This document shows positions 7,502 to 42,127 of a stretch of 64,000 nucleotides of DNA, one piece after another. The notes under the pieces were generated by a model that was given only the letters and a program-made list of their open reading frames with translations, did not search any database and had not been told where the DNA came from. Where the stretch lies: the NCBI GenBank assembly GCA_945870825.1, contig CAMBTM010000001.1, positions 26,926-90,925 on the forward strand, read 5' to 3'. Position 1 is the stretch's first letter, and the number at the start of each line of letters is the position of its first letter. The translations under genes were made by a program, and so were the position numbers. Origin of the DNA: Rhizobium sp. Q54 (GTDB taxonomy: Bacteria; Pseudomonadota; Alphaproteobacteria; UBA7879; VGCX01).

Positions 7502-7545
7502 ACATGTTGATTGTTTTCTAATGTCTATCTGAACTTATACACAGC

Positions 7546-8563
7546 CTAATCCAAAAAGGGCTTCAAAAGTGCCATTCCCTTTTGGATTTGGGGCTCAAGG
7601 TAAAGACCATAAGCGCCCTTGGGACGCCTTGCTTTTTGGCGTTCAAGTTTTTTAAATCCTTGACGTACCAGATAACACCCAAAGTGTAACCGGTTCAATA
7701 AACGGTATTTCTCAAGTTTTGCCAAATTTTCCGGTGTAACGGCCCCAAAATAAGCCTCCACCATTTGGTGTTCTTGCTCAGCTGTAAAGTCCATCTGTTC
7801 GGCTAATGAACCTAAATCCTCAAAAACATCCCCATGACTCACTTCTGACCAGTCGATCAAGGCAACGCTACCTCCCACAATAATGTTGGACGCTTGAATA
7901 TCACCGTGCACCACGTGGGTAAAAGAAGGCTTTAAAGAGTCTAAGAATTTTTCAGCCTTCACTAATCTTTCTTTCATATCAGGGGCGACTTTCAACAGTT
8001 CCCTCAATCGCCTCAGGGAACGATACCGCAATGATTTATTATCAAAATGAAGAGGCAATGTTGGAAGCAAGGCATGAGAGGCCTTTAGTTTTTCCATAAA
8101 CACCTTGAGCGTCTCTGGATTCTTAAAATAATCTTGATCCGGATGATGCCCTTCCAAAAACTCTGTGATCATCACTTGGTAACGAGGATCATGCCAAAAA
8201 AGCTTGGGATAACCCCAAACAGCCCCTAAGGCCTTTGTTGTTTCAATGGTCCGTCGACGTTCTGCAATAGGTGTTTTTTCATAGAAAATCTTGATAAAAA
8301 GTGAATGTTCCTGGCCTTTCACATCCAAAATACGCTGTTTGCGTTTCCCGTGGGATGATTCACCCAAAAAATTTGAATGCCCCTCTAATGATTGATGCCC
8401 TGGAAAAAGATGCTCGGTCCCTTGTATAATGTGGGTCCGAACAGCGTTAATAAACCCTGGCCTTAAGGTGCGAGGAACCGGATAACTCCAGCAAGGCAAT
8501 AACAGGATGAGAACAAAAACAAGCTTAAAGGGTGCGCGCCACCGACTTAACTTCAGAACACTC
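7546..8563 (-). CDS. Phosphotransferase-family kinase (APH/choline-ethanolamine kinase-like fold)
   Basis: Brenner motif [11 protein letters not shown] and DWSEVSHGD are present. The start is uncertain: candidates are ATG at 8613 or 8589, GTG at 8580, or TTG at 8563, and every one overlaps the 3' end of infB. Confidence 0.6.
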
Positions 8564-11077
8564 AATGATATCTCCTTCACGTAAATCATGATAATTTTCA
8601 AAGGCCATGCCACATTCTAGATTATTCTTCACTTCTTTTACTTCATCTTTGAGCCGCTTTAGGGATTTCAACGGACCTTCATGAATCACAACATCGTCTC
8701 TCAAGATACGCACCTTAGCACCGCGTTTAACAACACCTTCTGAGACATAACATCCAGCAATGGTGCCTACTTTCGAAATCTTGAAAATTTGACGTACTGT
8801 CGCACGCCCCAAGAATTCTTCTTGAGAAACAGGCGACAACATGCCCCCCATCATCGCTTTGATATCGTCAATAATCTCATAAATGATCGAATAATACCGA
8901 ATATCGAGATGCTTTTGTCGAGCAAGCTCCCGTGCTTGGGTATTGGCCCGTACGTTAAACCCAATGATCAGAGCACTGGACGCAGATGCCAGGGAAATAT
9001 CAGTTTCATTAATACCACCCACGCTGCAATGCAAAACACGCACACTGACCTCTGCTGTGGCTAATTTCTGCAAACTTGCACTGATGGCCTCAGCGGATCC
9101 TTGAACGTCGGCCTTAATGACCACTGCCAATTCCTTAGAATTGTTTTGTGTTGAAAAGAAGTTCGCAGCGGTAGCCGTTTCTTGAACAGCTGCTTTTTCC
9201 CGCTTTTTCAAACGACGATGGTCAGCAACTTCTCGGGCCTGAGCCTCATCTTTTACAACAAAAAAGGTATCGCCTGCCAAAGGAACGCCGTCAAACCCAA
9301 GGACTTCGACGGGGAATCCTGGACCAGCGCCTTCAACACGATGGCCCTTGTCGTCCACCAAGGCTCTGACTTTTCCAACTTCTATCCCTGCCACAAAAAT
9401 ATCGCCCGTCCGCAAAGTTCCTTTTTGAATCAAGATGGTCGCAACAGGTCCACGGCCTTTTTCAATTTTAGCTTCAACCACAGATCCCACCGCATCGCGG
9501 TCCGGATTAGCCTTCAAATCCAAAACATCCGCTTGAAGCAAAATAGCATCCGTTAGCTTATCGAGATTCATTTTTTTGGTTGCAGAGACTTCAACTGATA
9601 AAACATCTCCCCCCATTTGTTCCACAACAAGTTCGTGTCTTAAAAGCTCCGTCCTGACACGATCCGCGTCTGCAGCGGGCTTATCCATTTTGTTAATCGC
9701 AACAATGATTGGAACCCCTGCGGCTTTGGCATGGTTAATCGCCTCAATAGTCTGTTCTTTCAGTCCATCATCGGCAGCAACCACCAAGACAACGATATCC
9801 GTCACATGGGCCCCGCGGGCCCGCATTTCTGTAAAGGCAGCGTGACCAGGGGTGTCAATAAAGGTAATCTTATCCCCAGAATCGAGTGTCACTTGGTACG
9901 CCCCAATATGTTGGGTAATCCCTCCAGCTTCGCCCGCAACCACATCCGTTGTCCGCAACGCATCCAGCAAAGACGTCTTTCCGTGGTCCACGTGGCCCAT
10001 AATAGTCACAACAGGTGGACGGGCTTTTAAATCTTCAGGCTTATCAATCGATCCAATTAACGCTTCTTCAAGGTCCGTATCTGACACACGTTTCACTTTG
10101 TGTCCCAAATCTTCTGCAACCAATTGGGCTGTGTCGGCATCAAGAACGTGGGTGATTGTTGCCATGACCCCAAGTTTCATCAAAGACTTGATCACTTTAG
10201 CCCCTTGTTCTGCCATACGGTTGGCAAGATCTTGGACTGAAATCACGTCAGGGATAATGACTTCTCTGGATACTTTCTCTAAAGGATTAAATTGTTCTTG
10301 AAGTTTCTTTCGTTCTTTCTCGCGGGCCCGTTTGATGGACGAAAGACTGCGAGTCCGTTCATTTTCTTCTTCTTCCAAGGCCTCTTCAACGGTCATCTTT
10401 CCAATGACACGCTTGTTCTCGCGGCGATTGACGGTAACTTTTTTGACTTCATAAAGCTGATGCTTTTTCGTCTTTTCACTTTCTTCTGTTGCGTCATCAT
10501 CAAGATCTTTTTTTGTCTTGATTACTTTCGCTTCCAATGGTTTCTTAGCATTTTCGGGCAACACCATCGGGTCTTGGATTGCAGGATCTTGCACCGGTTG
10601 GTCTTCAACTGCTGGAGGCTCTGGTGTTTGCTTCGCGTACTTTTCTTCCATCAATTTCTTGATTTCAGCATCCCGGCGCGTCATCTCATCCCGCCTAGCT
10701 TCCTGCTTTTGAACAAACTGATTGGCCCGCTGAAGCGCTTGAAGACGGGCATCTCGTTCCTCAGATGTCAAAAATCCATCATTTCTTTTGTCTGTCGATG
10801 GTCTTTGGTGGGGCTGTGAAGGCTGAATAGTGGACGATGTTTCTTTTGACGGGTCAGGTTGTACACCTTGGACAGGTGACTGCGTAGACTTTGTTCGTTT
10901 CTTGACTTCAACGACAACTGTTTTGGATCGTCCCACCCCTGTTGTGCTGCGTTGTCCCCGATCAGCCCCTACAATATCCTTCAACACTAACTTGGATGAT
11001 AGTGTTAAAGGGGCCTTACCTGAATCCTTTTTAACAGAATCAGGCGCAATGGAACCGTTGTCGTTTTTATCACTCAT
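8525..11077 (-). CDS. infB: Translation initiation factor IF-2
   Basis: 850 aa with a charged, low-complexity N-terminus. G-domain [20 protein letters not shown] and NKMD motifs are present. Confidence 0.95.
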
Positions 11078-12913: not shown

Positions 12914-15736
12914 ATGCGCTATTTACTGACATTTATTATATTTATATTTTCCATCCATAGCCACGCTATGGAGGATTTAGCTGCATTGGTGCAGGCACGG
13001 TTTCAAGGCCGTGTGCCCAATCACCTTTTACCCTCTCGCTTTGCAGGATATGAACGTATCGCAACAAACATAAGGCTTTTAGGGGGTCGAAGCGTCCTTG
13101 AACCTTCGAGTAAAGGGATGATACCCTATCCTATGCCGCAGCCAGCGATTATGTTATCAGATCCTGTCTTTGGAACACCCCTTGTCCCCAGAAATGCAGC
13201 CGATGCTTTGCTTTTCTTCCTATTCCCTTATCCCAATATTTTTCAAGCGACCACCCTTGGGTCTGATCCAATCTCTAGGTTAGAACCAAAAACCTTGGGC
13301 CAACTGGCAAGACTTTGTGAGGAATATGAAGGGAGTCTTGCTGCCACCTACTCAGATACCCAAGTAATGGCTTTGGAAGAAGACTTCACAAAAGCGTTAT
13401 TAAAGGCCTTAAACTTTGATGCCAAAAAGTATGAACGTCTAGAGCCTAAACTAGATGCCTTTAATCGATGGATAACGGTCCAAGCTTTTGCAAGGAAATT
13501 AGATACAATGGCTGAAACAGTATCAGATGATGAGAGAGCAGTTGCAGCCCTCGAACACCCTGATTTAACATTGCCTCAGTGCGGTTTGCGGAACATGTTC
13601 AGAGGTTCACAAGAATTTTGGGGCATTTCTGGTATTGAACTTGAAACCTTAAGGCATCCATCCAATGAACACTCAGAGGTTCTCCAGTCTTTTGCAGAAA
13701 ACGTTTTGAATGAAGCATCCGTTAGTTTTTCCACCTTTGAAAATAGGGTGAAGGATTTTGGGAAAATGAGGCTCATTAATCTTATGGTCCGTGGCGTGGT
13801 GGATCAGCATTATGAGGCAGATATGAATGGTCTTAATCTTCAATCGCGCTTGGCCCTCTTCTTTTGGAAGAAGTACCAATGGGCTTTGCAAGAAGGAAAT
13901 ACAACCCCCATGATGGCGTTTTATGCGCACAGACTTGGCATTGATCCAATAGAAGGGCCTATGAACATCGTCCTATTACCCTTGCCCTTCTTGACCTTCG
14001 ACGATATAAAAAGGGATCCAAGACAATTTTTCTTACTTTCTTTGCCTGAGCAGGAAAAAATTATCAAAGAGTGTGCCGGCGCTTTCATCCCTATCAACAT
14101 GCACGAAGGGAAAGTTGAGGACAAAAAATTTTCTGATTGTATGGAAACAGCCATTTTTAACCTTGCAACAGCAATGATCCATAGGGTTGAAGCGGGGAAA
14201 GTTATCCTAGACCCAAGCTTTTTGCCTGACTGCCCTTTGAAAACCTATTTAGTAAAAAACCCTGGGGATTTCCATGAGTATGCGACCAAGCATTCTGAAT
14301 GGGCCAACGCTGTTGCAGGTATTCCAAGCGTTAAGTATCTTAAAACAACCACTGATGGGAAAGGATGTGAAGTCCGTCCTGGTCTTATTTCAACCCTTAA
14401 TGCTTTGTCTTTTCTTTTTGGCATGAAAGACCCTCTTCCCTATAAAAAAGATGCCTCCATTATGGAACGGTTGGCGCAAATTTCCACATTTATCCAATCA
14501 ACAGGTTATGCTGTGACACTTGTACTGGATGAAAAAAATAAACTTGAATGGTCTCCTTTAAAAAATGACTTTTCAGGACTATTCTCTTTAAAAAAGGATA
14601 CAGATACCGGGGTATTTGATACCTCCTTTGGACATGGTTATCTTAAATGGGTAACTGGCAATAGCAGTCGTGTCATCTCTCTCTTTGATCACGCCAAAAC
14701 TCTTGATGCCCTATTAACCACAGCCCCGCTTGTTAACAATCGAGATGCCTTTGATGCCTACATGAAAAAGTTCAGGATTCTTAGCGGCAGAGTTCATCAT
14801 TTAGAAGCCCATCTTTTTCAAATGGACTTAACGAGCCTTGAAATGCAAAAGGCTGTTTTCTTAGAAACCTACAATCAAAAATCTCTTGAAAGCCTAGCTC
14901 TTTCCATTATTCAACGGTTGGATGGAACTAACACTTGGCCCGCGGCTTGCGACTTTAACTTTCTGGACGGCGGCAATGGCACGCCATCAGATGAATTCCT
15001 TCATGCATTTGCTACAATACATCCAATGACTTTTTCTATCTGGAATATATTCCGGTCATATAGAACACCTGATGCTTCCATGTCTTTTTGGCATTGGTGT
15101 CGAGATACCCACAAAGAATGGATGATAGAAGCAGCGCTCCCCCTTCTCAAAGATTTTGGCACACAATGTGTGCCAAATAACGCTCAGGATCCTAGCCTTC
15201 TGTTACCCTATTTAACAAGGATGCCATCTCTTGAAACAGCACAGTTTTATGGGTGGGATGGGCCTTATTGTCTTAGGATGGAAGATACAAATCCTTTCCA
15301 TACGCCTGTCTTTGATTTTTTAACAACTAAAAATTTCATAAAAGATATTAGGGGTATTAGCCTGTCTCCAAAAACTGCTTTTCATATGATGGCACAATCT
15401 GCGAAACTCAGTCGACTCAGATTCGTCCCCCTCAATGAGACTGGATGGACAGAAGAAATTTTGAGAAAATTTATTGATCGATTTTTGACACGTAATACCT
15501 ACGGAGAGAGTAAATATCTAGAAGTGTCTTTTTTCTGGGAAGAATCAAAAATTCTAGATTTCATGAGATCTTTAAACCCGCAATACTTAAAAGATAACCT
15601 CTTTTATGCTAATAGCATGCCAGCTCCTTTAGGTGAATACGATCCAGAGACAACTGTGTATGCAAGAATCCTCAAAGAAATTCAAGACAGAGAATCCACT
15701 GCTGCTACCTCGGCCGAAGGAAAAACAGAAGACTAA
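12914..15736 (+). CDS. Large (~940 aa) secreted protein of unknown function
   Basis: Long ORF with a signal-peptide-like start MRYLLTFIIFIFSIHSHA at internal Met 12914. The upstream 33 codons of the ORF overlap the palindromic intergenic region and are probably non-coding. No motif I can assign. Confidence 0.55.
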   Translation: MRYLLTFIIFIFSIHSHAMEDLAALVQARFQGRVPNHLLPSRFAGYERIATNIRLLGGRSVLEPSSKGMIPYPMPQPAIMLSDPVFGTPLVPRNAADALLFFLFPYPNIFQATTLGSDPISRLEPKTLGQLARLCEEYEGSLAATYSDTQVMALEEDFTKALLKALNFDAKKYERLEPKLDAFNRWITVQAFARKLDTMAETVSDDERAVAALEHPDLTLPQCGLRNMFRGSQEFWGISGIELETLRHPSNEHSEVLQSFAENVLNEASVSFSTFENRVKDFGKMRLINLMVRGVVDQHYEADMNGLNLQSRLALFFWKKYQWALQEGNTTPMMAFYAHRLGIDPIEGPMNIVLLPLPFLTFDDIKRDPRQFFLLSLPEQEKIIKECAGAFIPINMHEGKVEDKKFSDCMETAIFNLATAMIHRVEAGKVILDPSFLPDCPLKTYLVKNPGDFHEYATKHSEWANAVAGIPSVKYLKTTTDGKGCEVRPGLISTLNALSFLFGMKDPLPYKKDASIMERLAQISTFIQSTGYAVTLVLDEKNKLEWSPLKNDFSGLFSLKKDTDTGVFDTSFGHGYLKWVTGNSSRVISLFDHAKTLDALLTTAPLVNNRDAFDAYMKKFRILSGRVHHLEAHLFQMDLTSLEMQKAVFLETYNQKSLESLALSIIQRLDGTNTWPAACDFNFLDGGNGTPSDEFLHAFATIHPMTFSIWNIFRSYRTPDASMSFWHWCRDTHKEWMIEAALPLLKDFGTQCVPNNAQDPSLLLPYLTRMPSLETAQFYGWDGPYCLRMEDTNPFHTPVFDFLTTKNFIKDIRGISLSPKTAFHMMAQSAKLSRLRFVPLNETGWTEEILRKFIDRFLTRNTYGESKYLEVSFFWEESKILDFMRSLNPQYLKDNLFYANSMPAPLGEYDPETTVYARILKEIQDRESTAATSAEGKTED

Positions 15737-15808
15737 GTCCCTCTCCCCTTCTGGGACGCCAGGGCATGGCATGAAAAAATCTCTTTTTTGCCAACGCGTA
15801 CCCATTCT

Positions 15809-15845
15809 CCTTGTAAATCAACCATGCGATAGCTGATTTACAAGG
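15809..15845. repeat. 12-bp perfect inverted repeat CCTTGTAAATCA-N13-TGATTTACAAGG downstream of the orphan gene
   Basis: Seen directly. No T-run follows, so it is not a canonical terminator. Confidence 0.5.
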
Positions 15846-15866
15846 AAACCCCCTATGAACCTGTCC

Positions 15867-15970
15867 AAATTTGCAATCAAAATGCAAATTTGTCCGGCTT
15901 TTTCTGTTTTTTCTTGCAATATGGCATCGCTAATGCCATATTGAGACTCAAAGTGGCATTTCAGGTGCCA
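15867..15970 (+). promoter_or_regulatory. Palindrome-rich promoter region of the DUF4143 ATPase gene: AAATTTGCA-N7-TGCAAATTT plus two TGGCA-N7-TGCCA sites (centres 15930 and 15962, 32 bp apart)
   Basis: Three separate perfect palindromes lie within 105 bp, ending about 30 bp before the ATG at 15999. The first TGGCA site extends to the 11-bp arms CAATATGGCAT / ATGCCATATTG. Confidence 0.5.
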
Positions 15971-15998
15971 TTTTGCGTGTAGCAAAAAAGGGAAGACT

Positions 15999-17177
15999 AT
16001 GCACTTTATTCCAAGGTTTTTTAAGGATCCAGGCCAAAGTTTCTTTCTTTTTGGCCCCCGTGGCACAGGAAAATCAACCCTCATCAAGGCTCTCTATAAA
16101 GACGCCATTTGGATTGATTTATTAAAACCTGATGTGCTCCGTAGTTACCTTGCGTACCCAGAACGTTTGGGAAATCTTATTGAAGGTCAACCAAGTATAA
16201 AAACCATCGTCATCGATGAAATCCAAAAAGCCCCGCAATTATTAACGATGATCCATCATCTTATTGAAAAGAAAATAGGACTCAAGTTCATCCTCACAGG
16301 ATCCAGTGCCAGAAAGATTAAACGGATGGATGCTGATCTTTTGGGAGGGCGCGCTATTAAACGAGAGCTTTATCCTTTTATGGCAGCAGAACTTGGCGAT
16401 CAGTTTGACCTGAAGAGAGCTCTAAACAGGGGCCTCCTCCCCTTGTTAACAGCCTCACCTAATCCTGAAGATACGCTTACAACTTATAGTGCCCTTTACA
16501 TCCACGAAGAAGTTCAAACGGAAGGATTTATAAGAAATCTAGGGGATTTTTCAAGATTTTTAGAGGCTATTTCTTTCTCTCATGGCGCCATATTAAACAC
16601 GGCGAACATTGCAAGAGAGTGTGAAATCAAAAGAAAAACCGTTGAAAATTATTTAAACGTTCTTGAAGATCTTTTATTATGTTTTAAGGTGCCAGTATTC
16701 TCGAAACGGGCCACACGTATGCTGAGTGTTCATCCAAAGTTTTATCTTTTTGATGCAGGTCTTTATCAAGGGCTAAGGCCCCGGGGTATACTCGATAAGC
16801 CTGAGGAAATCGAAGGTGCTGCACTCGAAGGACTTGTTGCGCAGCATTTAAGAGCCTGGGTACAGTATACAAGTCAAAAACATAGTCTCAATTTCTGGCG
16901 AACACGATCAGGATCAGAAGTTGACTTCGTTGTATATGGAACCCTGGGATTTTGGGGAATAGAAGTTAAAAATACGACAAAAATCCGTCCCGAAGACTTA
17001 AAATCGTTGGAATCTTTTTTGGAAGAATATCCAGAGGCTACAGGATTCCTTCTCTATCGTGGGTCAGAACTTTTTAAAAGAAATAATATCTTATGTGTTC
17101 CTGTCGATATGTTCTTAAGAAATCTTGTTCCTGACATAGGACTCTGGGAACATATCCCTACCCCTCTTAAACCATAA
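15999..17177 (+). CDS. AAA+ ATPase, AAA_14 + DUF4143 family (COG1373-like)
   Basis: Walker A GPRGTGKST and Walker B IVIDEIQ are present. The C-terminal region is typical of the DUF4143 family. A diverged paralog lies at 25864. Confidence 0.8.
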   Translation: MHFIPRFFKDPGQSFFLFGPRGTGKSTLIKALYKDAIWIDLLKPDVLRSYLAYPERLGNLIEGQPSIKTIVIDEIQKAPQLLTMIHHLIEKKIGLKFILTGSSARKIKRMDADLLGGRAIKRELYPFMAAELGDQFDLKRALNRGLLPLLTASPNPEDTLTTYSALYIHEEVQTEGFIRNLGDFSRFLEAISFSHGAILNTANIARECEIKRKTVENYLNVLEDLLLCFKVPVFSKRATRMLSVHPKFYLFDAGLYQGLRPRGILDKPEEIEGAALEGLVAQHLRAWVQYTSQKHSLNFWRTRSGSEVDFVVYGTLGFWGIEVKNTTKIRPEDLKSLESFLEEYPEATGFLLYRGSELFKRNNILCVPVDMFLRNLVPDIGLWEHIPTPLKP

Positions 17178-17828: not shown

Positions 17829-19344
17829 GACGTCTCCTCAACACAAACTTTAACGCCATGAGAAGATAGATGATCCAACAGATGATTGGATAAGGATCCG
17901 CTTGGCTAACCAGGGCATAAAATGGCTTTTCTTGAAGTGGGGCCGGGAGGTAGAAGTCAGCTGTTTGAGCCTCTCCATAAGGCAATTGCAGCAGAATTTG
18001 TCCCAGCGGATCAATCACCGCTGAAATACCCGTATTGGCCACACGCACCACAGGCACACCCGATTCAATGGCCCGCATCTGGGCCATAGCCAAGTGTTGA
18101 TAGGGTTCTAGACTATGCAAAAACCATCCGTCATTGGTCAGGTTGAGTATCCACTGTGCCTGCGCCGTCTCTTTCGTCTGGAATTTTCCAGAAAAAATGG
18201 CCTCATGACAAATAAGGGGCATAAAACAAGGAAGGTCTTTGCTGCACAAAAGTTTTGGGGCATCCCCTGGGGTAAAGTCCCCCAGGCCCCCACTCATCTT
18301 ATGAATTTGTCCAGGCAGGATACTGTCAATAAAATGCCGGAAAGGAATGTATTCGCCAAAGGGCAGGAGACGGTGTTTGTCGTAAAAGGTAATCCCATAA
18401 CCGTCGTGGTCAAAGGCCATCATGCTGTTATACACTTTCCTATTCCCATAGCGAAACCCGTTGGTGATCAACACACCTGCTGCAGGACATGCCTTTTTGA
18501 TATAATCCATCATCCACCCATGCCGCTCTGGGCTTAGATGAAAATCAAACTCTGGCCATATAACCGCCTTCAAAGGATAATCACTGGGACGCGTGGAGAG
18601 TGTCACAAAATGATCCAGTCCCTCTCTCATGGCTTTTTTTGACATCATGACCCCTTGGGGGAAATTAGGCTGAACAAGGCGAAGATAAGGCGGATGAACG
18701 GCGGCCCGTGAAAGGTGGTTTATTCTGTGAGATCCATACCAAAAAGATCCTATAAAACTAACAACAACAAAGATCCCATATAAACCCTTGTATCTCTTAG
18801 TATAAAGAGGGCTCAAAAGAATATAGGGCGTTGCCAACCAGCAAAGAGTAATCCCGCTCAAAAGGTAGGGGCCCATAAGGGACGCCAACTGGGAAATGGG
18901 AAGACACGTTGTCCACATCGTCCCAAGGGAAGCCCAGGGAAATCCTGTCAGGAATTCTGCCCGTATGATATCAAGCAGAGCCCAAAGAAGCGCCAACCAA
19001 AAAATACGAAAAGGCAGCCGATAACGATACCAAGGAATAAACCAAGCCCCAACCCTATAATAAAAACTGAAAAAGAGGGGAAGTCCCAACAGAGCAAAAG
19101 GAATCAAATAACCATACTGAGTCCAATTCACATGAAGCGAACAGGGAATCCAATGTAATGCCATCAAGAAATACCCAAAAGCAAAGGACCCCATCGCAGG
19201 AACAGGATGGGGGGATGTTTCCCCTTGAAGCAGAAAAAAAGAAAGTCCCAATGAAAAGAAAAGTTGAAAGCCTGGAATAGGAACTGTACCAAGCCCTGCC
19301 ACAAGGCCCAAGAAAATGATCCGGAGAGTCTTCATTGACGGCAT
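17815..19344 (-). CDS. lnt: Apolipoprotein N-acyltransferase
   Basis: 509 aa with a multi-TM N-terminal half and a CN-hydrolase C-terminal half. It sits in the conserved lnt-ybeX-ybeY-phoH-miaB cluster. Confidence 0.85.
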   Translation of the reverse strand: MPSMKTLRIIFLGLVAGLGTVPIPGFQLFFSLGLSFFLLQGETSPHPVPAMGSFAFGYFLMALHWIPCSLHVNWTQYGYLIPFALLGLPLFFSFYYRVGAWFIPWYRYRLPFRIFWLALLWALLDIIRAEFLTGFPWASLGTMWTTCLPISQLASLMGPYLLSGITLCWLATPYILLSPLYTKRYKGLYGIFVVVSFIGSFWYGSHRINHLSRAAVHPPYLRLVQPNFPQGVMMSKKAMREGLDHFVTLSTRPSDYPLKAVIWPEFDFHLSPERHGWMMDYIKKACPAAGVLITNGFRYGNRKVYNSMMAFDHDGYGITFYDKHRLLPFGEYIPFRHFIDSILPGQIHKMSGGLGDFTPGDAPKLLCSKDLPCFMPLICHEAIFSGKFQTKETAQAQWILNLTNDGWFLHSLEPYQHLAMAQMRAIESGVPVVRVANTGISAVIDPLGQILLQLPYGEAQTADFYLPAPLQEKPFYALVSQADPYPIICWIIYLLMALKFVLRRRHVAP

Positions 19345-25863: not shown

Positions 25864-27033
25864 TTGTGGAATATAAAAATGCATTTTAAGCGATATTTGA
25901 CCTTTCATTTGCCTGACCAACAATCTGCTTTTCTTTGGGGAGCAAGGAAAACTGGGAAATCAACCTTCCTAAAAGAGAAATTCCCAACAGCAGTTTACAT
26001 AGACCTTTTAAGGGCTGATGTTTATCAAGGATATCTTCGAAAACCAGAAAAACTGAGGGAAGAATTTCGTGGATTCACAGACCCCCTAACCATCATTATT
26101 GACGAAGTCCAAAAAGTTCCCATCCTTCTGGACGAAATTCATGGTCTCATCGAAGACAGAAAAAATCTTCAGTTTATTCTATGCGGATCAAGTGCTAGAA
26201 GATTAAGACAACCAGGCGTGAATTTATTGGGTGGCAGAGCCTGGAGGTTCATGTTTTTGCCACTTTGCTATCCCGAAATTCAAGAACTCAATTGGTCTCA
26301 TATTTTTAACAGAGGTCTTATCCCAAGCCACTACGTGTCACCATCTTGGGAAAAAAATCTTGCAGCTTATCTTTATGACTACGTCTTAACAGAAGTTCAT
26401 TTAGAGGCAGATATCCGGAAAAAAGAGTCTTTTGCCAGATTTCTAGATGTTCTTGGATTTTGTCATGGAACGCTTATCAATTACACCAATATCGCCCGAG
26501 ACTGTGGGGTCAACAGCAAAACAGTCATGACCTATTTTGAGATTCTGGAAGATATGTATTTAGGTTATTTTCTAAGGCCATTTCGATCAAGAAGCAGTCG
26601 TCAAATTGTTCAAAAAACACCCAAATTCTACCTCTTTGACACAGGCGTTGCCAATTATCTTAAGCGATATGAATTCAAAGAAATGAGAGGGGCTGACGCT
26701 GGCGCAAGTTTTGAACATTACGTATTTTTGGAATTGATGGCATACAAACTGCTGACAGATAAGCGGGATAACATTTTTTTCTGGAGAACAAAAGAAAAGC
26801 ATGAGGTAGACTTCATTGTTCAAGATATGGCTTTTGAAGTCAAAATTTCAACACCTATCGAAAAAAATGACATAAAAAACCTTCTCATTTTTGCCCAAGA
26901 TCATGCAATGTCTCTTCACATCATCTCTCTGGAACATCGAAAAAGAGTCATGCGAGAAGGAACCAAAGAAGTAACCGTATGGCCAATTCAAGACTTCCTA
27001 GAGGCCCTTTGGGGGGGAGATCTATGGAAATAA
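25864..27033 (+). CDS. AAA+ ATPase, AAA_14 + DUF4143 family (paralog of 15999..17177)
   Basis: Walker A GARKTGKST and Walker B IIIDEVQ. About 35-40% identical to the first copy by eye. The start is possibly the Met at 25879. Confidence 0.8.
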   Translation: MWNIKMHFKRYLTFHLPDQQSAFLWGARKTGKSTFLKEKFPTAVYIDLLRADVYQGYLRKPEKLREEFRGFTDPLTIIIDEVQKVPILLDEIHGLIEDRKNLQFILCGSSARRLRQPGVNLLGGRAWRFMFLPLCYPEIQELNWSHIFNRGLIPSHYVSPSWEKNLAAYLYDYVLTEVHLEADIRKKESFARFLDVLGFCHGTLINYTNIARDCGVNSKTVMTYFEILEDMYLGYFLRPFRSRSSRQIVQKTPKFYLFDTGVANYLKRYEFKEMRGADAGASFEHYVFLELMAYKLLTDKRDNIFFWRTKEKHEVDFIVQDMAFEVKISTPIEKNDIKNLLIFAQDHAMSLHIISLEHRKRVMREGTKEVTVWPIQDFLEALWGGDLWK

Positions 27034-31498: not shown

Positions 31499-32490
31499 TG
31501 CATCCCTTTCTCTATCAACATTTTTTGTAATGTTTCCCCCAAAGACACCAACACCGTCAATAAAAGCATCACTCCCCCCAAACCGCCAAGAACAATCCAT
31601 GGAGCATAAAGATGCTGTTTTCCTTGAATCAAAAGACCTCCTAGTGACAGCATGGATGATGGAAGAGAAAACCCAAAAAACTCAAGAGTGGTCAAGACTG
31701 ACACGGTGCTGACCATCATGAATGGAAGGCGCGCAAGAGGGTAAATAATAATTGTTGGCAAAATATGATGCAGAATAATGGTCCAAGGCTTTTGTCCCAT
31801 CATCCGGGCAGACTCAACAAAAGGTAAGGTCCGCCCTCGAAGAAATAATGGGCGAACAACTGGCACAAGTGTTCGCCATTTTAAAAAAACAAGGGAAAAA
31901 AATAGTGTGATGATATTAAAAGAAAGCAAAGATCCAATCACCATCATCAAAAAAAGAACCGGGATACTGAACCAAATTTCCACAATCCGTTGCAACACAA
32001 GGTCACACCACCCCCCCCTATAGCCTTGGAGTGCCCCTATAAAAAAGCCAATAACCGCACTCAAAAGCGTCACAGAGAACCCAAAGAAAAAGGAAAACCG
32101 TAAGGCGTAAAGAACCCGTGCTAAAACGTCACGACCTTGTTCATCCGTCCCAAGCCAGTGTTTCAAAGAAGGTTTTTGGGGTCCTGACCTGTGCAAGCCA
32201 TAGTCTACAGTCAGTGGGCCATAAGGAATAGGCGGCCACAGAGTCCAGAATTCTTCTTCAAGGCGTTCATCGTTAAAATCCGCTTGAATCAGTGAAGATC
32301 CCCCCATGTCTTGTTCACAGTAATAAAAAAAGATGGGGAAAAAAACCTTCCCTTGACGAACCATACACAAAGGATTGTGATTAGCAATCAAAGGCAGACA
32401 AAGCAATAGAAGGCTTAATCCTAAAAAAATCTTCAAAGACCAAGTTTTAGTCATACTGGCGTCCTCCCTTAAAATGAAGACGCGGATCAA
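31495..32490 (-). CDS. yejE: ABC transporter permease (YejE-like)
   Basis: Multi-TM BPD_transp_1-type permease in yejABEF order. Confidence 0.75.
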   Translation of the reverse strand: MIRVFILREDASMTKTWSLKIFLGLSLLLLCLPLIANHNPLCMVRQGKVFFPIFFYYCEQDMGGSSLIQADFNDERLEEEFWTLWPPIPYGPLTVDYGLHRSGPQKPSLKHWLGTDEQGRDVLARVLYALRFSFFFGFSVTLLSAVIGFFIGALQGYRGGWCDLVLQRIVEIWFSIPVLFLMMVIGSLLSFNIITLFFSLVFLKWRTLVPVVRPLFLRGRTLPFVESARMMGQKPWTIILHHILPTIIIYPLARLPFMMVSTVSVLTTLEFFGFSLPSSMLSLGGLLIQGKQHLYAPWIVLGGLGGVMLLLTVLVSLGETLQKMLIEKGMQ

Positions 32491-33478
32491 AAAAAGTCAT
32501 GGCAATATCAACCAAAAGCTGCACCACAAGCCCTATCAAGATAAAGATAAAAAGCGTTCCAAAAACGACAGGATAGTCCCTTTTTAAAATAGCCTGAAAG
32601 ACTAAAAATCCCATACCATTCAAAGAAAACACCAACTCAACCACCAGCGTATTCATGAAAAAAATACGGGTAAACGACTGAGGAATATGGGCGATGATAA
32701 GAACCACAATATGTTTAAGGGCATGTCCATAAAGTGCTTGATGGGAAGTCCCCCCTCGGGCATAAACGCCTTGGATATAGGGTTTTTTCAGTTCAGCTTG
32801 GAGGGCATTTTTGATAAAAAAAGTAAAACTGCCAATACTACCAAGAACGATCGTTAAAAGAGGCAAAACAAGGTGATGAAGGGAATCCAGAATTTTGTGA
32901 GACCACGACAATTGATCCCAATAATGCGAAATTAATCCTTGCAAGGGAAACCAATCCACATAAGTTCCTCCTGCAAAAACAATAATGAGAATAACCCCCA
33001 ATAAAAAATGAGGGGTGGCGTAGAAAAATGTGAGAACTAGCGCACTGAATCGGTCGACAAAAGACCCGTCATGGGTTGCTTTAAAAATGCCAAGAAAGAC
33101 CGCAATAAGATAAGAAATAACCATCCCCAAAAGACCCAATGACAGGGAAACAAGAAGAGATTCTTTGATTAAGGTGATAACCGTTTTATCTTGGAAATAG
33201 CTTTTGCCAAAGTCAAAGAACATGTACCGACAAGTCATGGTCGTAAACTGCTTCCACAAAGGTTCCTCTAATACATCGATAGAAACAGTGGGTGGAGAGG
33301 CAAGGAAGTTATTGGTGGTATTCACATGCCCTTCTTGAAAGGGACTGCCATAGACCTTCCCAGCACTATAATCATCAGGACTCCCCGGCAAAAGCTTGAA
33401 AAGTAAAAAATTGAAAAGAAGAGCCCCCACAATCGTCGGGATCATGAACAGCAGTCGCTTTAACCCATAAAATAACAA
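32447..33478 (-). CDS. yejB: ABC transporter permease (YejB-like)
   Basis: Multi-TM permease. Start/stop overlap with neighbouring genes. Confidence 0.75.
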   Translation of the reverse strand: MLFYGLKRLLFMIPTIVGALLFNFLLFKLLPGSPDDYSAGKVYGSPFQEGHVNTTNNFLASPPTVSIDVLEEPLWKQFTTMTCRYMFFDFGKSYFQDKTVITLIKESLLVSLSLGLLGMVISYLIAVFLGIFKATHDGSFVDRFSALVLTFFYATPHFLLGVILIIVFAGGTYVDWFPLQGLISHYWDQLSWSHKILDSLHHLVLPLLTIVLGSIGSFTFFIKNALQAELKKPYIQGVYARGGTSHQALYGHALKHIVVLIIAHIPQSFTRIFFMNTLVVELVFSLNGMGFLVFQAILKRDYPVVFGTLFIFILIGLVVQLLVDIAMTFFDPRLHFKGGRQYD

Positions 33479-33481
33479 AGT

Positions 33482-35263
33482 CTACCCCTTCATCCACCAG
33501 GCGTGGGGGTAGACAATATTCTCAGGAGCAGGCACAAAAGCAAACTTATTCCAATAGGCCACATGAATCAACGGTGGGCTCCACATGGGAATAATATAAT
33601 ACCCCCAGCTCAAGACACGGTCCAAAAGACCACTATAAAAACGCAGCTGCGCCCGTGTAGTGGCCCCTATAATTTTTTGTACTAAATCGTCCACAACAAG
33701 ATTCCTAACACCTGCCAGATTGAAGCTCCCAGGCAAAGAAGCCGCTTGGCTTCCCCACATGTTTTCTTGTTCTAATCCGGGAACGTGGAACGAAGGCATG
33801 AAGTAAAGAACTGCATCATAATCAAAATTTTTAACCCGTGACATAAAGGCCGTCGGATCCATAGACTGGGCATGAACCTCAATCCCAAAACGTTTCAGGG
33901 TTGAGAAATATTCTTGATACTGTTTTTCATAAACGGGATTTGAAAATAAGAATTGGAGATGGAAAGGCCCCATGACCGGATGGGTCAAAACCCCTTTTTT
34001 AATCCGCCACCCAGCTGATTCCAAAAGCATTAAGGCCTCTTCAAAGTGGCAACGCATAATGCCCCCTTGTGAATTCATCGCAGGGGTAAATTCCAAGACA
34101 GAGGCCTCGGGGGGATAAAGATCCGTTTCATAATTCTTAAGGTACGCTTTCTCTTGGGTAGATGGCACCCCCTCTGCCCCAAAGCCTGTATCCATATAAA
34201 TACTTTTGTTGCGTCGATAGTGTTCGAAAAAGACCGTATGATTCAGCCACTCAAAATTAAAGAGCAGATTCAAGGCTTTGCGCACACGCCGGTCTTGCAG
34301 ATGGGGTTTGCGGGTATTTAAAAAGATCGCATTTAATCCATGGGGATAAGGTTTTTTCACATCTTTTTTAACGACCTTCCCAAGGGTTATCGCTGGAAAA
34401 TTATAGTTATTAAGCCACCGGGCGATGCCCCATTCCCAGTTATAGTCCACAAGATTTCGCGCTAACGCTGCAACAATTGCGTCTTTATTTTTAAAATACC
34501 TAACCATGACTTTGTCGAAATTATATTGTCCCCGCGCAGAAGACAGAGCCCGACCCCACCAATGTCTCACCCGCTTGTACGTAATAAACTCACCCGCCCT
34601 GAAGGAATCAATTTCATAAGGACCACTGCCTAAAGGTGGCACCAAACTTGTTTCTTGGAAAGGATAGGATTTGTAAAAAGCCTTGGACAAAATAGGTAGG
34701 CGCGCAATCAAAAAAGGTAAAAGGGTAGAGGGTTTTTTAAACGTAAACTTCACCCGGTATTGGTCCAAACGTGTCACCTGGGCAACATCTTTTAATCCTG
34801 TCGCATATTGAGGAGCCCCCTCTTTCTTTAAAAGATCCATGGTAAAGACAACATCTTTGGATGTCACAGGTGACCCGTCATGAAATACCGCACTTTTATT
34901 CAACGTAAAAATCACAGACATATTATCGGTTGCAATCTCAAGAGATTCAGCCAAATAGGGATAAGCCACCGTCGGATCATCCAACGCAACCGTCATGAGT
35001 GTGCCGTGCACCAGTTCAATTCCTTCTGGCGGCGTGCCTTTGAGAATATAGGGGTTGAACGTATCAAAATCAGACTGCCGTGCGGTTAAAATAATCCCCC
35101 CCCCTTTTGGAGCATTGGGATTCGCATAAGAAAAATGTTCAAAATCCTTTGGGTACTTAGGATTAAAAAAATCCCGGTGACTTACGTAATGCTGCTGTGC
35201 CACAGCCATAGATGCCGTTACAAAAAGAGAAACGCTCAACAAAATAGAATAGATTTTTTTCAT
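33482..35263 (-). CDS. yejA: Family-5 periplasmic substrate-binding protein (YejA-like)
   Basis: 593 aa with a signal peptide. Large SBP_bac_5 architecture upstream of its permeases. Confidence 0.75.
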   Translation of the reverse strand: MKKIYSILLSVSLFVTASMAVAQQHYVSHRDFFNPKYPKDFEHFSYANPNAPKGGGIILTARQSDFDTFNPYILKGTPPEGIELVHGTLMTVALDDPTVAYPYLAESLEIATDNMSVIFTLNKSAVFHDGSPVTSKDVVFTMDLLKKEGAPQYATGLKDVAQVTRLDQYRVKFTFKKPSTLLPFLIARLPILSKAFYKSYPFQETSLVPPLGSGPYEIDSFRAGEFITYKRVRHWWGRALSSARGQYNFDKVMVRYFKNKDAIVAALARNLVDYNWEWGIARWLNNYNFPAITLGKVVKKDVKKPYPHGLNAIFLNTRKPHLQDRRVRKALNLLFNFEWLNHTVFFEHYRRNKSIYMDTGFGAEGVPSTQEKAYLKNYETDLYPPEASVLEFTPAMNSQGGIMRCHFEEALMLLESAGWRIKKGVLTHPVMGPFHLQFLFSNPVYEKQYQEYFSTLKRFGIEVHAQSMDPTAFMSRVKNFDYDAVLYFMPSFHVPGLEQENMWGSQAASLPGSFNLAGVRNLVVDDLVQKIIGATTRAQLRFYSGLLDRVLSWGYYIIPMWSPPLIHVAYWNKFAFVPAPENIVYPHAWWMKG

Positions 35264-38875: not shown

Positions 38876-39754
38876 TTATAATTCTTTGGCTAATTTTCTC
38901 ATAATTTTTAAGGTGACCTCCCGAAGATCATCACGCTCTAGAGAGAATGCAATATTGGCCTGAAGAAGCCCTTCTCGGGTACCACAGTCAAACCGCTCTC
39001 CTTCAAACTGATATCCATGGAAAGGGTGGGTCGACAGCATCCGTTGGAACGCATCTGTAATCTGCACCTCACCCCCAGCGCCTTTGCGTTTCTTTTCCAG
39101 CTCTTCAAAAATATCAGGCGATAAAATATACCGACCTAAAATCGCAAGCGTTGAAGGTGCATCTTCCACGGTTGGTTTTTCCACCAACCCTTTGGCTTTA
39201 ACCAACGGATTATCCAATGCCCCTTCTATATCTAAAATCCCATACCCCGACGTTGCCTCTTTTGGCACATTAGTCACAGCGGCCATATTCCCGCCAACCG
39301 ATTCATAATGTGACATCATTTGTTTCAAACAGGGCACGTCCGATAAAATCAAGTCATCAGCAAGCAATACTGCAAAAGGTTCGTCATTTACCAAATGCCG
39401 GGCACACCAAATGGCATGACCCAACCCCAAGGGCTCTTGTTGACGGGTATAAACCACCTGACCTGGGTCCAACACAAGGGCGTTTACCAGATCGAGATCT
39501 TCCTTCTTTCCCCGCCTTTCCAACATGGCATTGAGTTCATAGGAATAGTCAAAAAAGTCCTCAATGGCTTCTTTCCCGCGACCTGTCACAAAAATGAATT
39601 CTTCAATCCCTGATTTTTTGGCCTCTTCCACAGCGTAATAAATCAGGGGTTTATCAATGACGGTCAGCATCTCTTTGGGCATGGATTTTGTTGCTGGTAA
39701 AAACCGTGTCCCAAGACCTGCTACAGGGAAGACTGCTTTTTTAATTTTGCGCAT
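38876..39754 (-). CDS. galU: UTP--glucose-1-phosphate uridylyltransferase
   Basis: KAVFPVAGLGTRFLPATK motif. Confidence 0.9.
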   Translation of the reverse strand: MRKIKKAVFPVAGLGTRFLPATKSMPKEMLTVIDKPLIYYAVEEAKKSGIEEFIFVTGRGKEAIEDFFDYSYELNAMLERRGKKEDLDLVNALVLDPGQVVYTRQQEPLGLGHAIWCARHLVNDEPFAVLLADDLILSDVPCLKQMMSHYESVGGNMAAVTNVPKEATSGYGILDIEGALDNPLVKAKGLVEKPTVEDAPSTLAILGRYILSPDIFEELEKKRKGAGGEVQITDAFQRMLSTHPFHGYQFEGERFDCGTREGLLQANIAFSLERDDLREVTLKIMRKLAKEL

Positions 39755-39857
39755 TAAACTCTCATTTTAACCTAAGAATTGGCAGTATAGGAGGATGGAT
39801 AATGGATTGCAAGGGGGGGGAAGAAAGAGCGTAGAGAACCTATACGATGGGTTTGTC

Positions 39858-40145
39858 CTATATCCCCCTATCAAGGGCATTTTCATAAACTTTGCTTTTA
39901 TCCCTTTTGCCAACGGCAATCACTTCAATTGTTAAACACTGATCTTCCACTTTATAAACAAGCCTATAAGGCGGTCTCATAATTTTAATTTTATAACAGT
40001 TGGGCATCCCCCTCAATTTATTTTTAGGGTTATGGGGATTGAGCAATATTTCCTGAATCTTTTTTTGAAATATCTCTTTCAAAGAAGGTGTTAAATTATT
40101 CCATTCCCTTTGAGCTGATTTTTTAAATCTTAGTGAGTAAATCAT
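39858..40145 (-). CDS. relE: RelE/ParE-family type II toxin
   Basis: 95 aa. Overlaps the upstream antitoxin gene. RelE-like C-terminus YRLVYKVEDQ. Confidence 0.75.
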   Translation of the reverse strand: MIYSLRFKKSAQREWNNLTPSLKEIFQKKIQEILLNPHNPKNKLRGMPNCYKIKIMRPPYRLVYKVEDQCLTIEVIAVGKRDKSKVYENALDRGI

Positions 40146-40380
40146 TTATATCAACAGGTATGGTTTCTTCGTTTTCTCTTTCTGTAACAATGGCTGCTAA
40201 TTGGAGGTCCTCTATCATTTCCATTAAATATTCAAATAATTTGAAAGGTACGCAATAAAAGACAGGTTCATTTCTATTCAAAATAGCAATCGGATTACCC
40301 TCAGCGTTATTAACAACTTCCATGGGGTTTTTCTTCAACTCCGTTATGCTTGCAACTGTATCAGCGTATAGGGTATGCAT
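40123..40380 (-). CDS. Phd/YefM-family antitoxin
   Basis: About 85 aa starting MHTLYADTVASITELKKNP. AGGAGA ribosome-binding site 9 nt upstream of the ATG at 40380. Overlaps relE. Confidence 0.7.
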   Translation of the reverse strand: MHTLYADTVASITELKKNPMEVVNNAEGNPIAILNRNEPVFYCVPFKLFEYLMEMIEDLQLAAIVTERENEETIPVDINDLLTKI

Positions 40381-40590
40381 GATTATTTCTCCTAATAAAC
40401 TATTAATAGCACCTTTAAAAGACCTATTCAAGAGTTTTTAACCACCCCACCAACCGGACATTTCTAAATTGCGTTGATCGTCATACAATTTTCTTGACAA
40501 CAATATCCCAAAAATAGTCCTATACCTTCAGATCGTAATTAATCTAAAAAAATCACTTAGTTTGGTACTTTGACCTCTTAACGAAACGCC

Positions 40591-41208
40591 ATGGAACCGA
40601 ACATGATACTCGAAAACAAGTTAAACATCACCAATCAGGTAGAACTGGCCAAAGCAGAAGAAAAAATCAGCAAGCGAAAAGCCAAGCAGCTTTTTGACTC
40701 CGGTGATATTGCCAAAGTGGAAGTCTGCACCTTCGCCGGACTTGCTTTCATCCACGCCTATTTGTTTGAAGATATTTATGACTTTGCAGGCAAAATCCGA
40801 GAGGTTAACATCGCCAAGGGAAAATTCCGTTTTGCGCCACTGATGTATCTTCAAGCCTCTCTGGAACATATCGACACTATGCTGCAAGGCAGCGTTGATC
40901 AGATTATCGAAAAATATGTGGAGATGAATATTGCCCACCCCTTTCGTGAGGGCAACGGACGCGCTACCCGCATCTGGCTAGACATGATCTTGAAAAAAGA
41001 GAAGAAGCAGGTGGTGGATTGGAATTTGGTCGATAAAGATGAGTACCTTTCCGCCATGGAGCGCAGCGTGGTGAAGGATGTGGAAATCAAAATCCTGCTG
41101 CAAAAAGCACTGACTGATCAAATTCATGACCGCGCCCTCTTTATGAAAGGCATTGATGTCAGTTATTACTACGAAGGATATAGCGAGTTCAAAACAGAAG
41201 AGCTTTAG
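40591..41208 (+). CDS. fic: Fic-domain protein (AMPylation/phosphocholination family), class III with C-terminal inhibitory motif
   Basis: Fic motif HPFREGNGRATR. C-terminal SYYYEG matches the [S/T]xxxE[G/N] autoinhibition motif. Composition is more GC-rich than the flanks. Confidence 0.85.
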   Translation: MEPNMILENKLNITNQVELAKAEEKISKRKAKQLFDSGDIAKVEVCTFAGLAFIHAYLFEDIYDFAGKIREVNIAKGKFRFAPLMYLQASLEHIDTMLQGSVDQIIEKYVEMNIAHPFREGNGRATRIWLDMILKKEKKQVVDWNLVDKDEYLSAMERSVVKDVEIKILLQKALTDQIHDRALFMKGIDVSYYYEGYSEFKTEEL

Positions 41209-41302
41209 AGCCGCTTAGAAAATAACTATGACAAGGCTCTGTCGCATGTAAAAACGACACGTCTGAAAGTAGCGTGAATATTGAACTTAACATTTCCGAC
41301 CC

Positions 41303-42127
41303 CTACAACCCCGCCTTGACCTTTTGATCCAAGTCCGGGAAACGGATATGGTTCATCAAGTTCCGAAGCTCTTGTTTTGCTGCCACATGAGATAAGGTCA
41401 AGGGACGTCCCACGTCTTGAAGGTCCAATAACGTTAATCCAGACAAAAACAACTCCCGAAAGATCACGCGTTCACTGAATCCAGGGACCTGACGGAATGC
41501 AAGACGTTTGGACAAGGTGTTTAAAACCGTTTCCATTTTTTCTTTGTTATTAGCATGAATATGGGATAAGCGGTTCCGTAAAACAATCCAATCGATGGAT
41601 CCTCGGTCTCTTACAGCCCTGTTTTTCTTTTGTTCCCACACCCAATCAGCATAAATACTGGGACGGTCCAACTCCAAAGAGTCCGCCTTTAAATGGGCCA
41701 ACACATCCAAATCGATGAAACTATCGTTCAACGGTGTAATAAGGGTATCAGCATAGGAATGGGCAAGCCTTGACAGATAAATATCATGGCCAGGGGTATC
41801 AATCACCACAAAGTCACATTTTTGAAGGGATGAAAAAACTTTTTCAAAAGCGGCCGTGTCTTCTGCCTCGGCAACTTTTGTGGAATCCGCTTGGGACCGT
41901 TCAATGCGATGGTGTTCCGGCATAGGCAATTCAATATCATAGTTATTGGCAAAAGTTTTCCTGTTTTCAATATACCGTGACAAGGTCCCCTGGCGCGCAT
42001 CAATATCGATACTTCCAACCTTATACCCAAGCCTCAGCAAAGCTGTCATGACATGCATGGCAGTCGTTGATTTTCCGGTTCCACCCTTTTCATTGCCAAG
42101 TACAATTACATATGGTTTTTTTGACAT
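41303..42127 (-). CDS. mipZ: ParA-like division-site positioning ATPase MipZ
   Basis: GNEKGGTGKST deviant Walker A, IDIDARQ and VIDTPGHD. Overall resemblance to Caulobacter MipZ, recalled from memory. Confidence 0.8.
   Translation of the reverse strand: MSKKPYVIVLGNEKGGTGKSTTAMHVMTALLRLGYKVGSIDIDARQGTLSRYIENRKTFANNYDIELPMPEHHRIERSQADSTKVAEAEDTAAFEKVFSSLQKCDFVVIDTPGHDIYLSRLAHSYADTLITPLNDSFIDLDVLAHLKADSLELDRPSIYADWVWEQKKNRAVRDRGSIDWIVLRNRLSHIHANNKEKMETVLNTLSKRLAFRQVPGFSERVIFRELFLSGLTLLDLQDVGRPLTLSHVAAKQELRNLMNHIRFPDLDQKVKAGL

Follow-up and report, generated by a model that had tools for sequence, protein, structure and literature searches.

A gene lying between galU and mipZ in the window (the whole 64-kb stretch of DNA analysed here) encodes, with a probability that we put at roughly 85%, a single-domain, self-inhibited class III Fic AMP-transferase, which would have been acquired horizontally from a mobile lineage linked to restriction–modification (R-M) systems, and whose activity, target, and regulation would be those suggested by its homologues. 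The membership of the protein in this family, the conservation of its motifs, the insertion of the gene between two host genes, and the R-M context of its relatives are demonstrated by the comparisons below. The identification is correct and concerns a known family, in which close homologues have crystal structures; standard annotation would name the gene correctly, and both the link between R-M, PrrC, and Fic and the defence candidate PDC-S04 are already on record. The stakes at the locus itself are small, the fold, the catalytic mechanism, and the auto-inhibition being established from close homologues. The added interest here lies in the orphan state of the gene, whose lineage is otherwise carried in type I R-M operons. 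In its wider pattern, this class III Fic lineage has moved among many phyla with hardly any change, for the most part as a passenger of such operons on mobile elements, and occasionally turns up alone.

Family Identity, Motifs, and Intactness

The Fic domain PF02661 is the sole Pfam match to the protein (E 2.4e-11), and the NCBIfam equivalog NF046029 (ProtAdlyltaseNmFic) recognises it with 299.4 bits, above the cut-off of 230. In a search of the PDB, the top match was the Fic protein of Enterococcus faecalis (EfFic, 5nv5, E 2.6e-94), and the NmFic entries came next (at about 1e-62). The alignment to EfFic runs end to end without a gap, with 138 of 200 residues identical (69%), and that to NmFic, which is also gapless, has 101 identities over 177 residues (57%). 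With 201 aa, a single FIC domain, and no extra domains, the protein fits the class III size of about 190–210 aa.

The canonical Fic motif that had been recognised from the outset is present as HPFREGNGRATR at residues 112–123 (Table 1). The pattern HPFx[D/E]GN[G/K]RxxR occurs in 81 of 84 aligned sequences, and the stretch from H112 to T122 is invariant across 23 close homologues. Near the C-terminus, SYYYEG matches, column for column, the same hexapeptide of NmFic (S182–G187, with E186 as the glutamate) and of EfFic (E190), and a C-terminal [ST]xxxE[GN] is found in all of the 84 aligned sequences, a conservation that the original prediction had left to be checked. The assignment to class III, and with it the original proposal of an auto-inhibited class III Fic, is upheld because NF046029 scores above its cut-off, because the alignments to the solved class III structures of EfFic and NmFic are gapless with both motifs in register, and because the inhibitory motif is universal in the alignment.

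An AlphaFold2 model was built from a 23-sequence alignment, which was too shallow and too uniform; the mean pLDDT was 60, with values below 50 at the C-terminus and no helix in the SYYYEG region, and the model was set aside as too poor to serve as evidence. A helical state of SYYYEG in the window protein would be expected from the solved homologues, given the gapless identity of 69% to EfFic.

Against nine relatives, the dN/dS ratio lies between 0.04 and 0.10, with dS at about 1.0–1.7. Among positions with a conservation of 85% or more, the window Fic deviates at four, which is also the family median. One of its residues, Cys42, stands where every other aligned sequence has glycine (Table 1), and this change could impair folding or oligomerisation. 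It is not evidence of decay, since one or more substitutions at sites that are otherwise invariant are likewise found in 29 of 82 sequences (35%). Judged by its sequence, the copy is intact and constrained; its ORF is complete and has lost none of the catalytic or inhibitory residues. For a mobile toxin gene, this lineage is unusually well conserved, with 75–92% amino-acid identity in more than 12 phyla and saturated synonymous sites.

Table 1. Positions of the features discussed, numbered from the first letter of the window.
Feature	Position	Strand	Evidence or remark
galU	38876..39754	-	TIGR01099, 339.6 bits against a cut-off of 326.8
Lineage-specific 1.55-kb segment (relE, phd, fic)	39755..41302	.	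Between galU and mipZ; missing in relatives
ParE/RelE-superfamily toxin, 95 aa	39858..40145	-	PF05016, E 5e-12; TIGR02385; GC 0.33, z -4.1
Phd/YefM-type antitoxin, 85 aa from ATG	40123..40380	-	PF02604, E 1.5e-8; TIGR01552; GC 0.345, z -3.6; divergent from fic
Four additional codons (MEPN) of the mechanical 205-aa ORF	40591..40602	+	Upstream extension past the Met at 40603, seen in no homologue; probably untranslated leader
fic CDS, from its most likely start	40603..41208	+	Class III (NmFic/EfFic-type) protein adenylyltransferase; PF02661, NF046029, PDB 5nv5, 201-aa homologues
Cys42 codon (TGC)	40726..40728	+	Gly in 83 of 83 other aligned sequences, EfFic and NmFic included
FIC active-site motif HPFREGNGRATR (H112, E116, N118, R120, R123)	40936..40971	+	Residues 112–123 of the 201-aa protein, read from the sequence
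Inhibitory motif SYYYEG (S187...E191-G192)	41161..41178	+	Residues 187–192; E191 codon at 41173–41175
mipZ	41303..42127	-	PF09140, E 6.8e-106

Comparison with Characterised Fic Proteins

EfFic (PDB 5NV5 and related entries) resembles the window Fic in its length class, its single FIC domain, its HPFREGNGRATR motif, and its SYYYEG motif, and it too is found stand-alone, on plasmids. It differs in the phylum of its host and in having glycine where the window copy has Cys42; a metal switch has been described for EfFic itself. NmFic (PDB 2G03, 3S6A, 3ZLM) has in common with the window Fic the inhibitory glutamate and the three tyrosines of SYYYEG; relative to the aligned NmFic chain, the window protein is about 16 residues longer at the N-terminus. 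Stanger et al., in 2016, are said to have found that a tyrosine in the inhibitory helix of NmFic is auto-modified, and the three tyrosines of SYYYEG are all kept in the window protein. The class I proteins FicT and VbhT have the same FIC fold and catalytic motif and give weak matches to the window Fic (E 1e-12 to 1e-16), and the targeting of GyrB and ParE by AMPylation is a precedent that they share. In these class I systems, however, the inhibitory helix is carried by a separate antitoxin, whereas in the window Fic it belongs to the same polypeptide.

The fic Reading Frame and Its Signals

The open reading frame of 205 aa on which the original prediction was based exists (40591..41208, + strand), but the protein is likely to be shorter than claimed. 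The second methionine is the start in all 83 homologous loci that were fetched and in an identical database protein (P0001), which has 201 aa, the standard length of the family and one that is fixed in nearly all copies; the true start of fic is therefore most likely 40603 (201 aa plus stop) and not 40591. The similarity to relatives is confined to the interval from the ATG at 40603 to the stop codon.

A scan for promoters and terminators between 39700 and 41400 found no sigma-70-like promoter upstream of fic on the + strand, and the promoter and terminator counts in this interval were not above those of shuffled sequences. The ribosome-binding site of fic is weak. A hairpin 3' of the fic stop codon was considered as a terminator and rejected, as it was not significant (z -0.2). 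An Rfam scan of the whole 64-kb window returned three tRNAs and nothing else.

The galU–mipZ Site and Horizontal Acquisition

The location between galU and mipZ was correctly given by the original prediction, as the TIGR01099 and PF09140 matches on the two flanks confirm. The host, as placed through its MipZ protein, is an uncultured alphaproteobacterium. This MipZ shares about 64% identity with its counterparts in Candidatus Odyssella, Candidatus Bealeia, and the Paracaedibacteraceae, and its closest relatives are metagenome-assembled genomes (MAGs). In a relative with a 93% identical MipZ, mipZ is followed by 270 bp (in which the only call is a 57-aa ORF) and then by galU-ugd-pgm, and in another, with a 76% identical MipZ, 40 bp separate mipZ from galU; there is neither fic nor a toxin–antitoxin (TA) pair at either junction. 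In the window, the corresponding interval measures 1548 bp and contains relE, phd, and fic, after which comes galU. Elsewhere, what lies beyond mipZ is fabH (in a relative with an 85% identical MipZ), a gene of no known identity followed by lexA (86%), or IS630 fragments (in the MipZ cluster at 90% identity or more). On the strength of these junctions, the mipZ-galU adjacency is taken to be ancestral and the spot to be prone to rearrangement. The junction at the 3' end of mipZ varies in almost every relative (L084, L086, L087, L088, and the contig of P0121), and the region beyond it appears to be a hot spot for rearrangement or insertion in this clade.

Fic homologues with 75–92% identity are found in more than 12 phyla, with a list that includes Bacteroidota, Cyanobacteria, Desulfobacterota, four proteobacterial classes, Spirochaetota, Planctomycetota, and Fibrobacterota, as well as Verrucomicrobiota, Fusobacteriota, Campylobacterota, Actinobacteria, and Firmicutes. 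Moreover, 966 plasmid records carry Fic homologues, 696 of them mobilizable or conjugative, and the top plasmid matches (81–83.5%) belong to Candidatus Megaera polyxenophila, a ciliate endosymbiont. Since the site is empty in close relatives and since such similar proteins are spread across so many phyla, the horizontal acquisition of fic is well supported. The original conclusion thus stands, although the compositional argument that had been offered for it is weak (see below, “Composition of fic and of the Window”).

The search for a donor lineage, which had been proposed along with this conclusion, yielded no close donor among the sampled relatives: the best nucleotide identity is 84.7%, falling to 65% at third positions, with dS at about 1, so the transfer was not a recent one from any sampled source. 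Transfer of fic by phage was considered and is unsupported, with two weak phage records being all that was found. A 16-nt direct repeat (13 of 16 positions matching) at 39689 and 41240, with a spacing of the size of the insert, was examined as a target-site duplication and rejected as a chance match because one copy sits in the conserved part of galU that encodes FLPAT.

Relatives in Type I R-M Operons

Each of the four nearest proteins that were examined (92, 91, 89, and 89% identical) is encoded between hsdM and hsdS in a type I R-M operon. The gene order in the operons of the relatives is hsdM-fic-hsdS-[prrC]-hsdR, with the fic start often overlapping the hsdM stop (ATGA), and some of these operons contain the PrrC anticodon nuclease (PADLOC PrrC, E 4e-100). 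The operons of the closest relatives adjoin an integrase, a serine recombinase, or a TraG-type coupling protein. The contexts of fic were counted over 87 distinct loci: a full-length hsdM lies directly upstream in 34 (10 of which have prrC too), a fragment of hsdM in 6, and no hsdM in 41, while the flank is too short to judge in 6; hsdM or a fragment of it is hence directly upstream in 40 of the 81 assessable loci. At identities of at least 85%, all 13 loci have hsdM (11) or an hsdM fragment (2).

Several seemingly stand-alone copies keep the 3' end of hsdM and the 5' end of hsdS as non-coding relics. Nucleotide comparison and a peptide-pattern search, which detect such relics at L006, L011, L013, L016, L035, and L041, found no hsdM or hsdS relics in the flanks of the window fic, and HsdM, HsdS, PrrC, and HsdR have no match at E 1e-5 within the 64-kb window. 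The description of the gene as stand-alone holds, therefore, within the window, which has no R-M gene, but this label hides the more informative fact that its nearest relatives are embedded in R-M operons.

The association of R-M operons with PrrC or RloC and with DOC/Fic proteins was described from gene neighbourhoods in 2013 by Anantharaman et al. (PMC3710099). The R-M-embedded Fic/DOC proteins found with PrrC/RloC, like those of PDC-S04, belong to the same lineage as the window Fic (85–92% identity); the window copy differs from them in that hsdM, hsdS, prrC, and hsdR are missing from the 64 kb and relics from its flanks. The non-R-M contexts seen at other loci are mixed and comprise housekeeping genes, RhuM, Mrr, transposases, and several TA genes, and on Enterococcus plasmids the EfFic-type genes do not have R-M genes alongside. 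In a Methylicorpusculum MAG (L007), a RhuM-family gene (6970–8001) separates hsdM from fic and a KilA-N gene (8610–9419) separates fic from hsdS, which indicates that the gap between hsdM and hsdS accumulates several passenger genes.

The Phd/RelE Neighbours

The original prediction had described the Phd/RelE pair beside fic as AT-rich, and the domain matches and a GC content of 0.33–0.345 (z about -4) agree with this; it is this pair, and not fic, that is the true compositional outlier of the region. The mechanical ORF of phd has 102 aa, with a TTG start, and reaches 40431, but translation more probably starts from the ATG at 40380, which gives 85 aa. Its outlying GC and its absence between mipZ and galU in relatives mark the pair as a foreign insertion in its own right. 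There is no + strand ORF in 40432–40602 that might be a small antitoxin gene of the class I type, and the divergent Phd protein, as read from its sequence, is without the [ST]xxxE[GN] motif.

Homologous Phd-RelE pairs (46–53% amino-acid identity) were found in a gammaproteobacterial MAG (L035, 7379–7904) and in a Desulfovibrionaceae MAG (L039, 6994–7507), in both cases directly upstream of fic and on the same strand. They are the sole matches to the pair among all the fetched loci, and the pattern may reflect either a recurrent association of TA genes with fic or a common insertion hot spot.

Proposed Mechanism

The enzymatic activity, target, regulation, and cellular role of the window Fic are predicted here from homology. 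With ATP as the donor, the histidine H112 of HPFREGNGRATR would catalyse the transfer of AMP onto a side-chain hydroxyl of the target protein. In the resting state, Glu191 of SYYYEG, on the C-terminal helix of the protein itself, would fill the place of the gamma-phosphate of ATP and so inhibit the enzyme. This proposal follows the work on the two solved homologues, in which the C-terminal helix that carries E186 (NmFic) or E190 (EfFic) obstructs the productive binding of ATP and in which an E-to-G exchange raises AMPylation (PMC6408439, PMC3667792); the C-terminal placement of the inhibitory motif is, moreover, the definition of class III (same references).

The target is likely to be GyrB, the ATPase subunit of DNA gyrase, and possibly topoisomerase IV as well. 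This is an extrapolation from NmFic, at 57% identity, and is made because NmFic AMPylates E. coli DNA gyrase (PMC6408439, PMC3667792). AMPylated gyrase would then lead to growth arrest. As to how inhibition might be released, the literature offers two precedents, since NmFic is regulated by oligomerisation and since EfFic turns to deAMPylation with Ca2+ (PMC6408439, PMC3667792). An NmFic-like switch would consist in a dilution-driven conversion of tetramer to monomer together with auto-AMPylation. An EfFic-like switch would consist in a balance between AMPylation and deAMPylation that depends on Mg2+ and Ca2+, with the same glutamate supporting deAMPylation.

As to its origin, the gene would belong to a highly conserved lineage that has been transferred widely and is normally housed in type I R-M operons carried by mobile elements. 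The window would then contain an intact copy that has no R-M gene with it and that shares a 1.55-kb insertion, between galU and mipZ, with an AT-rich Phd/RelE module to which it is unrelated.

Alternative Roles and Origins

A tentative alternative, which overlaps with the preferred explanation as regards the mechanism of the enzyme and differs in biological role only, is that the protein is an anti-phage, abortive-infection toxin, which in the window would act alone via its own oligomerisation or metal switch. In the relatives, the R-M complex would silence Fic as EcoprrI silences PrrC, and a phage that disables restriction would free it. Consistent with this, the protein matches the PADLOC candidate PDC-S04 (PDLC04842, E 3.9e-101, model positions 1–200 of 202), the relatives share an operon with HsdM, HsdS, and HsdR (and, in the 10 loci mentioned above, with PrrC), and a three-level defence made up of R-M, RloC/PrrC, and DOC/Fic has been proposed from gene neighbourhoods (PMC3710099). 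SoFic, which is another Fic, is a proven defence protein, but its model gives a negligible match here (E 0.0016); PDC-S04 is without experimental support, one published study in a native host saw no defence phenotype, and the R-M partner is missing in the window. The analogy with PrrC-EcoprrI, in which a toxin gene likewise lies among hsd genes, is one for the relatives only and is not applicable to the orphan copy; the enzyme and its target are unrelated to those of Fic. A more speculative extension, which we consider doubtful, is that this ultra-conserved Fic lineage, with a dN/dS of about 0.05, might be a second-line toxin guarded by type I R-M in the manner of PrrC, and that the orphans might be escaped toxins, acting as minimal addiction or defence elements of one gene each that seed small TA islets at hot spots between genes. 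If this were true, orphans would owe their persistence to a protein that serves as its own antitoxin, an AMPylase and a deAMPylase in one active site. Alternatively, the gene could be a functionless leftover, a toxin gene stranded because its R-M operon was lost or did not come along in the transfer, crippled by the G42C change, and decaying. The window is the sole locus among the relatives of at least 85% identity without a trace of hsdM, the cysteine replaces an otherwise invariant glycine, and the scan recognised no promoter, but the ORF is of full length with its catalytic and inhibitory residues all intact, its deviations at conserved positions are at the family median (changes at invariant sites being frequent in the family, as seen above), and biochemically characterised members of the family also occur stand-alone, EfFic-type genes on Enterococcus plasmids among them. 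We consider a leftover unlikely.

It is equally improbable that fic and the Phd/RelE pair form one three-gene unit that arrived together, with the TA pair acting to stabilise or regulate the islet of fic. Both fic and the pair are indeed missing from the empty site of relatives, homologues of the pair lie upstream of fic in the unrelated L035 and L039, and other stand-alone fic genes have TA neighbours (MazF at two loci, HicB, PIN, and HepT, with HicAB on the Megaera plasmid). The GC contents differ, however, being 33–34% for the pair and 44.7% for fic, and they do so in L039 too (0.59 for the pair and 0.48 for fic); the genes are divergent in the window but co-directional in L035 and L039, there is no such pair in 78 of the 80 other loci, and class III Fic does not require an antitoxin. 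Less probable still is an effector of an intracellular symbiont which, like the Bep proteins of Bartonella, would AMPylate a eukaryotic protein. This reading draws on the fact that the closest named MipZ proteins come from protist endosymbionts (Odyssella, Bealeia, and Paracaedibacteraceae) and that the best plasmid matches of Fic come from the ciliate endosymbiont Candidatus Megaera polyxenophila. Against it, free-living cyanobacteria, methanotrophs, sulfate reducers, and Bacteroidota have proteins that are 85–92% identical, and the window protein consists of a bare FIC domain of 201 aa, without further domains or a secretion signal region. Under the preferred reading, that of a self-inhibited class III AMP-transferase from an R-M-linked mobile lineage, the orphan may serve defence, addiction, or regulation, or may simply be tolerated. 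More generally, pairs of R-M-embedded and orphan copies offer a natural comparison between defence, addiction, and regulation as possible roles of class III Fic proteins.

Composition of fic and of the Window

The original prediction had also described fic as richer in GC than the genes around it and as different from them in codon usage. With the 50 long ORFs of the 64-kb window as the baseline, the first part of this holds against the Phd/RelE pair only and not against the surrounding genes, since the GC content of fic is 0.447 and that of the window 0.446 (z -0.13 among the 50 ORFs). At the separate codon positions, the GC3 of fic (0.549) is at the top of the 50 ORFs (z +2.4) and its GC2 (0.257) at the bottom. 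When synonymous codons were resampled from the pooled usage of the window, with the protein sequence held fixed, the amino-acid-conditioned GC3 of fic was 0.540 as observed versus an expected 0.418 +/- 0.033 (z +3.7, p 4e-4), a deviation that exceeds those of all 46 host genes (maximum +3.2). The claim of odd codon usage is hence correct as regards the raised GC3; in codon log-likelihood, the z of -2.84 for fic is matched or undercut by 6 of the 46 host genes. There is, in short, a modest but real third-position bias in fic, and its overall composition is not anomalous; a composition indistinguishable from the average, which was to have counted against the original prediction, is found for overall GC and is not found for GC3.

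The raised GC3 is partly a property of the family. Over 71 homologous loci, the GC3 of fic is correlated with the GC of the flanks (r = 0.72), and the GC3 of the family is typically 0.49–0.62 where flanks or hosts have about 44–46% GC and is typically above that of the host. The GC3 excess was considered as a pointer to the donor and rejected, since fic GC3 tracks the GC of the host and since the family typically exceeds the GC3 of its host.

Three long ORFs elsewhere in the window, at 12914–17177 and 25879–27033, deviate more than fic does. Given the amino acids that they encode, their GC3 is markedly low (z -3.3 to -4.3), and their codon likelihood is poor (z about -3.1 to -3.4); they may be further genes of foreign origin or of unusual expression. 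A strong AT skew is also seen at 10201–10800 (-0.34), 18601–19200 (+0.37), and 31801–33600 (about +0.3).
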